From UHGV virus genome UHGV-0375936: a stretch of DNA of 64,000 bases. The stretch is one strand, 5' to 3'. Below are positions 6,928-9,845 of this stretch, in pieces. A program made the translations under genes and the position numbers. Below the pieces are notes generated by a model, which was not told the origin of the DNA, ran no database searches, and saw only the letters and a program-made list of their open reading frames with translations. Numbering within the stretch: the stretch's first letter is position 1; each line of letters starts with the position of its first letter. Source of the stretch: a virus.

Positions 6928-7374
6928 TTAACCCATTAAATGGATTACAACGTCTTTAGTTACTGAGTTTGCAAGTAAGCGGAAGAACTTCATGTAACGG
7001 AACATGCTAAAGAAAACCCCAGCGTCGTCTATAATGACAAGGCTGTATTTTTCTTTTTCTGTACCCATTTGGTAACCGCTGATTTGTGTGATGTTTTCCG
7101 GTAATTCTTCGAGACCCAAACGGAATAGCACATCGTCCTCTAAGAACCCTTTTGGGTTAACGAACAACACTTTCCCTTTATGGTTCTTAGCTAACTCGAC
7201 ACCGAAGTCTGTAAGCCCCATCTGCCTACCTGTACCGTAGCGGATAGTACGAAATTCAGATAAGGCATTGGGACCATAACGTTCGGTAAATGGGTTATCT
7301 TTAGAATCCAGATCAGTTAAACCTTTTGATAATTCTTCTACTACGATGTTATAGTTAACATGAGTTTTAGACAT
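6928..7374 (-). CDS. Hypothetical protein (148 aa)
   Basis: ORF on minus strand between td exon 2 and small ORF pair. Confidence 0.55.
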   Translation of the reverse strand: MSKTHVNYNIVVEELSKGLTDLDSKDNPFTERYGPNALSEFRTIRYGTGRQMGLTDFGVELAKNHKGKVLFVNPKGFLEDDVLFRLGLEELPENITQISGYQMGTEKEKYSLVIIDDAGVFFSMFRYMKFFRLLANSVTKDVVIHLMG

Positions 7375-7403
7375 TTCAATGTTCCTTTTAGTTAAGTGGC
7401 GGC

Positions 7404-7700
7404 TTACACCGCGACAGGCGCAGCAATATGTGGATGTGCTTGATAGCCGACTAATTCGAAGTCTTCGTATTTATAATCGAAGATAGAATCAGGTTTACGT
7501 TTGATATCCAGTTTAGGCAGCGGATAAGGCTCTCGCGTAAGCTGAAGTTTTGCTTGTTCCAGATGGTTAGAATACAGATGAACGTCTACACCACTATAAA
7601 CCAACTCGTCCGGAACCATATCCAATTGCTGTGCAATCATGTGGGTCAAGATCGCGTAGGAAGCGATGTTAAATGGCAAACCTAAGAATACGTCATTACT
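7404..7700 (-). CDS. thyA: Thymidylate synthase, exon 2
   Basis: Encodes [20 protein letters not shown]...[10 protein letters not shown], the conserved TS C-terminal half; in-frame stop 7 codons upstream of the annotated Met shows the exon must be joined by splicing. Confidence 0.85.
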
Positions 7701-8784
7701 CATTACGTTCAGATGCGGTCGTTAGTCGCATCCCGCGCCATTACGCGCAGCTGCATGTCACCATGCAGATCGGACTATATCACCCTCTACATTGTAGAGG
7801 CTCTCCCGTTTCGAGAACACTTGTTCCCTACGAACAGTCACGTTCTAGTCTCTGGGCATTTATCTGACCATTTCCATGTGGCATATTTTGGATTTTTACT
7901 GTTTACCCTCCAGAGGACAACGGTTGTGTGTTTACCTAGCTGTCTTCCGGCCTCTGTAATACTTTCGTATTCAATGCCGTCAATGTTTACTGGTCTGCTG
8001 TTTGTGGGCTTGGTACCCATCCTGCGTTCGGCAAGTTTACGTTTAGTCTCGTCAGAATGGTGTTTACCGTAAAAAGGATTTTTCTCTCCAACACGCTGCG
8101 CAGCAATGATGGATAGCTTTCTACGTGTTTCCTCACTGCGTTTTATCCCGAGACACGGTGAGGTATTATGTTTATACCATTCTGCTAACTTTTCACTCAT
8201 TTTCTTCCTGGATTCGGGAGTATGTGTGCGACCATACATGCCGTTTGCCTTGCCGAATTTACCGTAAATTTTTTGACGTTCTTCCTTTGACATTTTTGAG
8301 AATCTTCGATAGAGTGAGTTAGTCATTTTTTGAATAATCTCTGCCCTTCTTGGATTCCTGCTAATGCAATCGTAACCGCATTCGATGTTAACAAATCCTT
8401 TTTCACTACTAATCATTTTCTGTTCGAGCTCGCGCGCCTCCGCTTTAGATGTGCAAGGCACGATAGTTGGGTTACCGTCGTATCTATACCCTTCATTCCA
8501 GATTTTCTGGAGTGTAAAGTTATGATGCGTACCTTTCTCTAACAGATTTAAATGAATTTTGATACGCTCGTTGAAATCACGAGTCTCTCCGACGTAGCGA
8601 AAACGTTTTTCACCTTTTACGAAAGTAATAATGTAAACAACTGCCATAGGACCTCCTTTGTTTCATATTAAAAGGCTGTCCTAGAAATGGTTCGAATTTA
8701 GCAACGGGTTCTCTCCGTAGAGTTCTTCCCGTTTTAAGGAGAGTTTTTCGACTAAGGTCACCCTTAGAAGGCGCAGTTATGTTT
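7701..8784 (-). mobile_element. Group I self-splicing intron (1084 nt) interrupting thymidylate synthase, carrying a homing endonuclease ORF
   Basis: Lies between TS halves; exon 1 ends in U (CGU), intron ends in G (..GUAAUG); group I-like elements GAUAUAGUCC, GAUCUGCA and GACUA in 3' part; 5' part resembles the T4 td intron as recalled from memory. Confidence 0.7.
7838..8647 (-). CDS. Intron-encoded GIY-YIG homing endonuclease (I-TevI-like)
   Basis: N-terminal VVYIITF...RFRYVGET (GIY...YIG) with downstream R, E residues; repeated G..H..E.RRK.S linker motifs; own SD AAGGAGG before ATG. Confidence 0.85.
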   Translation of the reverse strand: MAVVYIITFVKGEKRFRYVGETRDFNERIKIHLNLLEKGTHHNFTLQKIWNEGYRYDGNPTIVPCTSKAEARELEQKMISSEKGFVNIECGYDCISRNPRRAEIIQKMTNSLYRRFSKMSKEERQKIYGKFGKANGMYGRTHTPESRKKMSEKLAEWYKHNTSPCLGIKRSEETRRKLSIIAAQRVGEKNPFYGKHHSDETKRKLAERRMGTKPTNSRPVNIDGIEYESITEAGRQLGKHTTVVLWRVNSKNPKYATWKWSDKCPETRT

Positions 8785-9528
8785 ACGCATCAGAAAGAAA
8801 CAAGAAAGCTTACGGCGTGGAATGCCCTCACGATCTAAAGTTTCATGAAGTCGTTCTTCATCATCAATATCTTCGTGATTAATAAGTGGCGCGTTCGCAA
8901 ATTTTTCCGGTTCATTTGCTTCGTACCAATCCAGTCGCTCAAGCAGTGTCATTTCTGTAGTGTAGAACTGGAAGTAGTTGTGACACGGATTAAGTGCCAT
9001 GTCGTCCAGGTCACTTACGTTCCAGGCACTAACAATAATGCGACGAGAATCAGGGTCTTCGCGAAGTTGCTGGATGACCTTACTGATCTGGTCGTGAGAT
9101 TTGCGATAAATAACGATACTTTCTTCAGGATTGTCTCTTGCAATAGTCCCAACGTAGTGATAGCCCCGTTTTCTCAACACGTCTTTACTACGCTCGTCCC
9201 AAAGATAAACCATTTTGGTATCCATCCAATCCCGCCACTGGTGTCCGTAGACAGGACCTAAATCCCCTTCTTCATTCGCCCACTCGTTCCAGATTTTTAC
9301 CCCATTCTCTTGCAGGTACTTCACGTTAGTGTCACCATTTAAGAACCACAGCAGTTCGTGAATGATACTTTTCAGGTGAACCTTCTTCGTAGTAACTAAT
9401 GGGAAACCTTCTTTCAGGTCAAAACGTAGTTGACGACCAAATACAGATAGTGTCCCTACACCTGTGCGGTCTTTCTTGACAACACCGTTATCCAGAATGT
9501 CTTTCATTAACGCTAAATACTGTTTCAT
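8785..9528 (-). CDS. thyA: Thymidylate synthase, exon 1
   Basis: [15 protein letters not shown]...DRTGVGT...HELLWFL...[10 protein letters not shown]...PCHNYFQFY catalytic Cys motif; ends KLSCFFLMR then runs into intron stop. Confidence 0.85.
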
Positions 9529-9845
9529 TTGTTATTATTCCCCATTCGTTTCGTTAAAATATCTAAATTACGTTGCGCTTGTTCAGGACTAAATATAATG
9601 TTTTCCTGGCTATACGTTACATGGAAATGTTTTTTGTTAACAATGTCAACCTTAAGGCCACGAACTTCGAATTGCCGTTTAGCCTCTTCAACCTTTTTTG
9701 GTGAGATTCTAAGAAGACCTGGAAATAGTTCGTCCGCAGGAACGTAATATTTGATCTCCTTAGTTTCGGGAATTAATTCGATTCTATCTAAACTGACGCT
9801 TATAATTTCGTCAATCTTTTTCTTGATATTGTCGTTCGTAACCAT
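9525..9845 (-). CDS. Hypothetical protein (106 aa)
   Basis: ORF, minus strand, abutting neighbours with 4-nt overlap. Confidence 0.55.

Follow-up and report, generated by a model that had tools for sequence, protein, structure and literature searches.

The T4 td intron, which carries the gene of a GIY-YIG endonuclease, I-TevI, in its P6 loop, interrupts the thymidylate synthase (TS) gene between GGT (Gly) and CTA (Leu) of FLG|LP, as read from the T4 genome record, and its internal guide (GGGU/GCCU, read directly) suits that site. Td-like phage introns, which we take to belong to subgroup IA2, also occur at a second position in TS. In Bacillus mojavensis thyA, the host gene of I-BmoI, and in SPbetaL1, the intron lies between an Arg codon (CGN, with G at −2) and a Ser codon; the thy intron of the SPbeta-type phage beta22 presumably shares this site. 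The 21-bp offset between the two positions was reportedly the subject of primary papers by Edgell & Shub in 2001 and Bechhofer et al. in 1994. For B. mojavensis, the position follows from the substrate oligonucleotide and numbering used for I-BmoI, which map the insertion to Arg|Ser (PMC3664794). Erwinia phage vB_EamM_RisingSun (and Joad) has an intron in the same gene at the same Arg|Ser point (MF459646, 163.4–164.4 kb; endonuclease gp187), although its public record shows three separate CDSs and annotates no intron.

Here, we analysed a 64,000-nucleotide stretch of the virus genome UHGV-0375936 (the window), in which the TS locus is a jumbo-phage gene in two exons, according to direct reading and the list of open reading frames (ORFs); this and all features below lie on the minus strand. 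Exon 1 (9528..8785) begins with ATG at 9528 and ends with T at 8785, the last base of a CGT codon for Arg that the alignment with ThyA equates with E. coli R166. Exon 2 (7700..7404) begins with AGT, the Ser codon equivalent to E. coli S167, and ends with the stop TAA at 7406..7404. The intervening 1084 nt (8784..7701) start with A at 8784 and end in ..AATG, with the terminal (omega) G at 7701. The two TS pieces occupy different reading frames: an ORF of 254 aa (9528..8764), whose end reads KLSCFFLMR and then KHNCAF before a TAA (8764..8766) that lies within P2, six codons past the splice site, and an ORF of 99 aa (7703..7404) with an initial M. A stop shortly inside the intron is likewise found in RisingSun, L107, L055 and L037. 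The first ORF matches positions 1–156 of the Pfam Thymidylat_synt profile (PF00303, E=5e-69) and the second positions 169–266 (E=2e-38).

Joining 8785 to 7700 yields KLSCFFLMR|SNDVFLG, which aligns without gaps to KLSCQLYQR|SCDVFLG of E. coli ThyA across R166|S167 (query 239–346 against chain 157–264), bearing out the junction and the intron length given in the original prediction. The joined protein is a full-length ThyA-type TS (E=6e-110 against E. coli ThyA) with the catalytic S, D, PFNIASY and HLYSNH motifs visible in the alignment. Its residues 1–346 align in one piece, at 59–64% identity, with TS encoded without an intron in SPN3US, Goslar, Asesino and others, an end-to-end agreement of the kind proposed as a check on the spliced product. 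The enzyme carries two insertions, at residues 103–144 and 192–238, the latter visibly common to the SPN3US TS, and the CFFLMR at the end of exon 1 is unusual, as relatives have CQLYQR.

The intervening RNA has the anatomy of a group I intron. P1, together with the 5′ strand of P10, spans 8771..8788; it pairs exon GCGU (8788..8785) with the internal guide GCGC (8774..8771) and places a U·G at the splice site, so that U at −1 and the terminal 3′ G are both present. This P1 is short, and the 4 bp proposed at the outset are backed by a compensatory pair in SPbetaL1 (CCGU/GCGG). For P10, ACU at 8777..8775 can pair with AGU of exon 2 (7700..7698). The 5′ half of the core (8684..8767) comprises P2 (8767..8752), P3-5′ (8743..8738), P4-5′ (8732..8728), P5 (8722..8711), P4-3′ (8708..8704) and P6-5′ (8691..8684). 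The 3′ half (7712..7874) comprises P6-3′ (7874..7867), P7-5′ (7850..7846), P7.1 (7845..7832), P7.2 (7828..7813), P3-3′ (7806..7801), P8 (7800..7784), J8/7 with P7-3′ (7781..7773, a conserved GAUAUAGUC), P9 (7768..7751), P9.1 (7750..7733) and P9.2 (7732..7712). The ribozyme is homologous to that of T4 td, with which it shares P2, P3–P9.2 and the P7.1 and P7.2 helices between P7 and P3′; the two are 62% identical over 272 aligned positions after deletion of the ORFs, and their 3′ ends are nearly identical (CUGAACGUAAUG versus CUGAACAUAAUG).

Conservation of this fold was assessed over 77 named pairs, including the P3/P7 pseudoknot, P1 and P10, counted on 11 homologues. Pairing was found in 82.3% of cells, compared with 66.1% ± 1.0 in shuffles (none of 500 reached the observed value), and 50 pairs show compensatory change with both sides altered. 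Sliding the 3′ partners by 1–3 columns lowers pairing to 34–44%, a control in which the structure is favoured, having been derived from the UHGV-0375936 sequence itself. Helices of the 5′ core half are paired in 62–97% of cells, and P7, P9 and P9.2 in 97–100%, in both cases with compensatory changes (for example, P7 GACCA/TGGTC in RisingSun). Values for P5, P7.1 and P8 are low, at 45–62%, an effect to which loss of register in the MAFFT alignment of these helices contributes at least in part; P7.1, at 45%, is variable in length and poorly aligned, and its neighbour P7.2 covaries. Column-wise counting pairs P10 in only 64.5% of cells; by eye, P10 varies with the exon, reading CACU/AGUG in RisingSun and UUGA/UCAA in JA29. 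Together with the homology to the T4 td and RisingSun introns, this covariation upholds the original proposal that a group I intron splits the TS gene.

The covariance-model check suggested for that proposal gave a match below threshold. Rfam Intron_gpI (RF00028) detects the intron weakly, at 23.9–24.8 bits under permissive settings and over 7926..7751 only (E=0.0014 at 23.9 bits), and gives no match anywhere in the window at its gathering threshold of 50 bits. The shortfall can be explained by the 809-nt ORF in P6, which interrupts the core; homologues at the same TS site that have no ORF pass, at 70.9 bits (L037) and 59.5 bits (L115). The permissive scan of the whole window returned the same weak Intron_gpI match and no second intron, and neither a second GIY-YIG paralogue nor a second td-like P7′–P9 motif was found within it. 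Megablast of the locus against phage genomes gave no close relative, the sole match being 105 nt at 81% to an intron in the RNAP gene of 201phi2-1; tblastn against phage genomes supplied the relevant relatives.

The ORF in the P6 loop (8647..7838) is intact and encodes 269 aa. Its own Shine-Dalgarno sequence, AGGAGG at 8657..8652, can be read directly, and Pfam identifies GIY-YIG (31.9 bits, cut-off 22.6) and NUMOD3 (62.6 bits) in the product, in line with the GIY-YIG endonuclease that had been predicted; I-TevI_DNA-bd scores 26.9 bits, 0.1 bit below its cut-off of 27. The protein is built from an N-terminal GIY-YIG domain, three NUMOD3-like repeats and a C-terminal helix-turn-helix of the I-TevI type, and it matches I-TevI in the PDB through 1I3J (DNA-binding domain, residues 182–251, E=1.8e-9) and 1MK0 (E=0.004). 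When the catalytic positions known for I-TevI (Y6, Y17, R27, H31, H40, E75 and N90) are compared, all are retained: Y5, Y18, R28, H32, H41, E75 and N87 are invariant in an alignment that includes I-TevI and four further intron endonucleases. In the same alignment, the protein is 29% identical to I-TevI, which has one NUMOD3-like repeat fewer; the extra repeat stands where I-TevI is Cys-rich, and no Cys cluster was found in the UHGV endonuclease. That region of I-TevI is occupied by its zinc-finger linker, which permits cutting 23–25 nt from the insertion site. In having no zinc finger, the UHGV endonuclease resembles I-BmoI, unlike I-TevI, and it shares GIY-YIG and three NUMOD3 repeats with the I-BmoI/SPbeta type, a likeness at the level of domain architecture.

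In T4, the site had been given as FLG|LP and the present insertion placed 21 nt upstream; the T4 genome record agrees, and the UHGV intron, at Arg|Ser, lies exactly seven codons before the Gly|Leu point. The td-like TS introns compared for site were ten others and T4. All ten, the homologous introns of RisingSun, JA29, LY2, SPbetaL1, SL2 and five IMG/VR contigs, use Arg|Ser, and only T4 uses Gly|Leu, where its internal guide also differs (GCCU for GGGU). Judged from these sequences, Arg|Ser is the common site and that of T4 the odd one out. The offset from T4 that was first described as a shift is real, yet these ten introns and the I-BmoI substrate show that the UHGV position is not unusual; similarly, of the ‘independent or displaced’ invasion that had been proposed, displacement holds, whereas independence does not fit a ribozyme that is 62% identical to T4 td and has the same helices. 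The nearest counterpart is RisingSun, whose intron has an almost identical 5′ end (AAACAxxACUGCGCCUUCUA), keeps its ORF in the P6 loop as well, is 75% identical once the ORF is deleted and encodes an endonuclease 45% identical to that of UHGV-0375936; the two differ in phage genus and in the exon at the junction (CQLYQR in RisingSun, CFFLMR here). SPbetaL1 is more distant, with an endonuclease only ~40% identical, an ORF in the P8 loop rather than P6 and, as in Bacillus, a host TS of the divergent B. subtilis ThyA type.

We conclude that the TS gene of UHGV-0375936 very probably harbours a group I intron of the T4 td type that is mobile and self-splicing. In the pathway that we infer, the pre-mRNA would fold into P1–P9.2, and an external guanosine would attack after U8785, which P1 (GCGU/GCGC) holds in place. 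Exon 1, once released, would in turn attack just past the terminal G (7701), P10 assisting in the alignment of exon 2, and ...LMR would be joined to SND... in a full-length TS of 346 aa, with the predicted mRNA junction ...CUGAUGCGU|AGUAAUGAC. Translation of the 269-aa endonuclease would start at an AUG within the P6 loop, served by a Shine-Dalgarno sequence of its own; the enzyme would bind the conserved DNA coding for DVFLGxPFN in an intronless TS allele and cut at the Arg codon just upstream of it, the position also expected for cleavage of TS by the T4 td enzyme. Repair of the break from an intron-containing copy would copy the intron in, which constitutes homing; an allele with the intron would be immune because in it the intron keeps the sites of binding and cleavage apart and sets a T at −2.

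A candidate target for such cleavage is present in the intronless TS allele of SPN3US, which reads CTCTATCAACGC|AGTGCGGAT (also given as CTCTATCAACGC|AGTGCGGATTTTTTCCTCGGCGTGCCGTTCAAC, with CAACGC|AGT at Arg|Ser). It carries CAACG ending at G-2, which fits CNNNG, the cleavage motif of I-TevI (PMC12774661), and it is on G-2 that I-BmoI critically depends (PMC3664794). The 3′ end of the UHGV intron places T at −2, which is also the base described there in the I-BmoI allele that has the intron (PMC3161791). The suitable target in SPN3US is the one line of support for the predicted cut at the Arg codon.

Could the element instead be a decayed relic, fixed but immobile like the T4 nrdB intron with its I-TevIII, whose RNA no longer splices efficiently or whose endonuclease is inactive? 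The Rfam score below gathering on the window, the short P1 and the CFFLMR that replaces the CQLYQR of relatives are compatible with decay, but the ORF is full length with its GIY-YIG catalytic residues and DNA-binding modules intact, every core helix is present, and the invariant core nucleotides are common to the self-splicing T4 td intron. Without splicing, moreover, TS would be lost, and yet the exons keep all the TS catalytic motifs visible in the alignment. We regard such a relic as unlikely.

Far less credible still is the notion that there is no intron at all, and that a free-standing GIY-YIG gene has inserted into TS, leaving a split or dead gene and two fragments made as separate polypeptides. 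The records of RisingSun (gp186, gp188), JA29 and LY2 do annotate an endonuclease CDS alongside two TS CDSs, and the exon 2 ORF here opens with an in-frame ATG (7703..7701). That ATG, however, coincides with the conserved intron 3′ end ..AAUG, its G being the omega G, and direct reading finds no Shine-Dalgarno sequence before 7703. The ORF is flanked by ~275 nt that form a group I core with covariation and homology to T4 td, and at the same site there are homologues with no ORF that score above the Rfam gathering threshold. An intein was also considered and rejected, the intervening ORF being out of frame and flanked by ribozyme structure.

As a mobile td-type intron, the UHGV element is one more case of a kind already well studied and leaves current understanding unchanged. 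It does correct the gene models of this phage and its relatives to one spliced TS with an intron endonuclease, in place of two TS fragments, and it adds a Gram-negative jumbo-phage example, with a ribozyme plainly homologous to T4 td, at the site studied with I-BmoI. Genome-editing fusions make use of the I-TevI/I-BmoI scaffold, of which the UHGV nuclease is another natural variant. Tentatively, and with somewhat more doubt than conviction, we suggest that Arg|Ser is ancestral and the T4 Gly|Leu site derived: a guide change from GCGC to GCCU may have retargeted the td ribozyme 21 nt downstream, while the endonuclease kept cutting at the Arg codon by means of a longer zinc-finger ‘ruler’ linker. 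If so, the introns of UHGV-0375936, RisingSun, JA29, SL2 and the IMG/VR contigs would show the ancestral condition as it exists in jumbo phages that infect Gram-negative hosts, a condition hitherto described, to our knowledge, in Bacillus alone. If the endonuclease is active as proposed, it could also cleave the TS of SPN3US-like phages that lack the intron and infect the same cell, and so take part in phage–phage competition, a part that PhiPA3 gp210 has been shown to play (PMC11620839).

The exon 1 frame runs six codons across the internal guide before its stop, and ribosomes in that frame could interfere with P1. The last ~12 codons of the endonuclease overlap P6-3′, J6/7, P7-5′ and P7.1. 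In the predicted minimum-free-energy fold, the endonuclease Shine-Dalgarno sequence AGGAGG lies within a putative hairpin (8683..8647) in which CCUUU pairs with AAAGG.

The thymidylate synthase (TS) gene lies on the minus strand as two open reading frames, one of 254 aa at 9528..8764, ending in KHNCAF before its stop, and one of 99 aa at 7703..7404 (ORF listing of 7200..9800), which match positions 1-156 (E=5e-69) and 169-266 (E=2e-38), respectively, of the Pfam TS profile. Direct reading places T8785 as the final base of a CGT codon and G7701 at the close of ..AATG, with 1084 nt in between, exactly the coordinates of the original prediction. Joining 8785 to 7700 yields a 346-aa protein whose residues 239-346 align with chain residues 157-264 of E. 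coli ThyA, without a gap across R166/S167 (E about 1e-109). Over its full length (1-346) it forms a single tblastn piece, 59-64% identical, with the uninterrupted TS genes of jumbo phages, among them SPN3US, Goslar, Asesino and Machina. Only the 8785/7700 junction has both a U ahead of the 5' splice site and a G ahead of the 3' splice site. The reading of an intron-split TS with a GIY-YIG endonuclease is borne out: the feature is real, a group I intron of the td type that is inserted between Arg and Ser of TS and encodes a GIY-YIG homing endonuclease resembling I-BmoI.

The Rfam model Intron_gpI scored below its gathering threshold in the window, because an 809-nt ORF occupies the P6 loop; a permissive search recovered the 3' core alone (7926..7751, 23.9 bits, E=0.0014; 24.8 bits for the whole window). 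The intron was therefore assessed by comparison with homologues. The closest phage-genome relatives of the endonuclease, from Erwinia phages RisingSun and Joad, Dickeya phage JA29, Bacillus phages LY2 and SPbetaL1 and Pseudomonas phage SL2, are likewise flanked by TS pieces. A P7'-P9 signature matched at least 120 stretches in IMG/VR, and among the matches listed six carried TS, interrupted in five and uninterrupted in one. The five include natural ORF-less introns of 280 nt (contig L115) and 299 nt (contig L037), which exceed the Rfam gathering score of 50 bits with 59.5 and 70.9 bits, respectively. All these td-like TS introns, including T4 td (sequence from the T4 genome record), align over their entire non-ORF length; minus its ORF, the window intron is 75% identical to that of RisingSun and 62% to T4 td.

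Helices P1-P10 were written for the window sequence and then counted on an 11-sequence MAFFT alignment, where standard pairs occupy 82.3% of 781 cells, a level attained by none of 500 shuffles (66.1% +/- 1.0 paired); moving the 3' partners by 1-3 columns left 34-44% paired. Since the structure was taken from the window sequence and is hence favoured in the slide control, the compensatory changes weigh more as evidence: 50 of the 77 pairs differ on both sides. P2, P7, P9 and P9.2 are paired in 97-100% of cells with numerous compensatory changes, as in P7, where RisingSun has GACCA/TGGTC versus GACUA/UAGUC elsewhere, while the lower pairing of P5, P7.1 and P8 is at least partly an effect of alignment register. 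P1 joins the guide GCGC to the exon GCGU, with a compensatory pair, CCGU/GCGG, in SPbetaL1. Judged by eye, P10 tracks the exon (ACU/AGU in the window, CACU/AGUG in RisingSun, UUGA/UCAA in JA29), for which the column-wise count, with 64.5% of cells paired, gives weak support.

The original prediction had placed the insertion 21 nt upstream of the T4 td site, and the T4 record confirms this: the T4 intron separates GGT (Gly) from CTA (Leu) in VFLG/LPFN, seven codons (21 nt) downstream of Arg/Ser. All other td-like TS introns examined are at Arg/Ser: YQR/SAD in RisingSun and in IMG/VR contigs L107, L055, L037 and L115, FLR/SSD in JA29, NMR/SND in LY2, RAR/SND in SPbetaL1, YQR/SVD in SL2 and .../SCD in contig L047. 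For I-BmoI, the substrate oligonucleotide GA-NNNN-G-NNNNNNNNN-CATGGCCTTGGGAAATCCCTTCAAT has G-2 as its fixed base, with A+8/C+9 and G+7 also named (PMC3664794). By this numbering, G+7, A+8 and C+9 form the Asp codon of S-x-D-M-A-L-G-N-P-F-N, so that the insertion falls between CGN (Arg) and Ser, as in the window. The site of the window intron is therefore one previously studied in Bacillus mojavensis thyA; the T4 site is the exception. Bechhofer et al. in 1994 and Edgell & Shub in 2001 reportedly described this 21-bp offset in thy of beta22 and thyA of B. mojavensis. The shift relative to T4 is already known for TS introns, and in our sample it is the majority state.

The endonuclease ORF (269 aa, 8647..7838, minus strand), preceded by AGGAGG at 8657..8652, contains Pfam GIY-YIG and NUMOD3 domains, with I-TevI_DNA-bd 0.1 bit short of its cut-off, and the I-TevI catalytic residues have invariant counterparts at Y5, Y18, R28, H32, H41, E75 and N87. 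Compared with I-TevI, it has one more NUMOD3-like repeat and lacks the Cys cluster, matching the three-NUMOD3 architecture described for I-BmoI (PMC3664794). The intronless TS allele of SPN3US, CTCTATCAACGC followed across the site by AGTGCGGAT, contains CAACG, which conforms to the I-TevI cleavage motif CNNNG (PMC12774661) and ends on G-2, the base critical for I-BmoI (PMC3664794). Relative to exon 2, position -2 is a T supplied by the window intron; the intron-containing allele of the I-BmoI system is reported to have the same change (PMC3161791), which provides an explanation for self-immunity. From sequence, we infer cleavage and homing by the window endonuclease; what uncertainty is left concerns activity (splicing efficiency, nuclease function) rather than identity. 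Minimum free energy prediction alone gives a hairpin at 8647-8683 (minus strand; UAGGAC...GUCCUA, CCUUU paired with AAAGG) that masks part of the Shine-Dalgarno sequence and terminates at the AUG, reminiscent of the translational sequestration of I-TevI.

Among TS introns, P6 holds the endonuclease ORF in the window as well as in RisingSun, LY2, JA29, T4, L107 and L055 (all at Arg/Ser bar T4); SPbetaL1 has it in P8 and SL2 in P9.1, and it is absent from L115 and L037. These differences at the same site suggest that endonuclease ORFs invaded the ribozyme independently. The 105 nt at window positions 7708-7812 (minus strand, P8 to P9.2) share 81% identity with an intron of gp273/274, the RNA polymerase beta-subunit gene of Pseudomonas phage 201phi2-1; together with the few TS cases among the IMG/VR signature stretches, this places td-like cores in many different phage genes.

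The window endonuclease sequence is recorded on a 225-kb metagenome scaffold (ENA ERZ28645711, TETT19-3 scaffold_3), where its neighbouring genes are the same. No close match to the window TS locus was found in the phage genome collection, and SPN3US-like jumbo phages match the window DNA only patchily, at about 74% identity. In exon 1 (8785-9528), comparison with E. coli ThyA shows two insertions, residues 103-144 (about 42 aa) and 192-238 (about 47 aa), the second visibly common to SPN3US TS, and CFFLMR stands directly ahead of the splice site, where CQLYQR is usually conserved. The exon 1 frame reads on for six codons into the intron (8764-8784, minus strand), over the internal guide to a TAA stop within P2, as also in RisingSun, L107, L055 and L037; in T4, LY2, SPbetaL1, SL2 and L115, UAA forms intron bases 1-3. 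Ribosomes crossing the guide sequence might influence P1 formation. Public records of RisingSun, JA29, LY2, SL2 and SPbetaL1 give TS as two CDSs or 'hypothetical protein', plus an endonuclease, and carry no intron feature for it; these gene models could be corrected. In L055 (4308-5429) and L037 (573-1526), exon 1 itself falls into two tblastn pieces about 120 nt apart whose query ranges (1-83 and 37-250/259) overlap; the gene may be interrupted a second time, or rearranged, upstream of the Arg/Ser intron.
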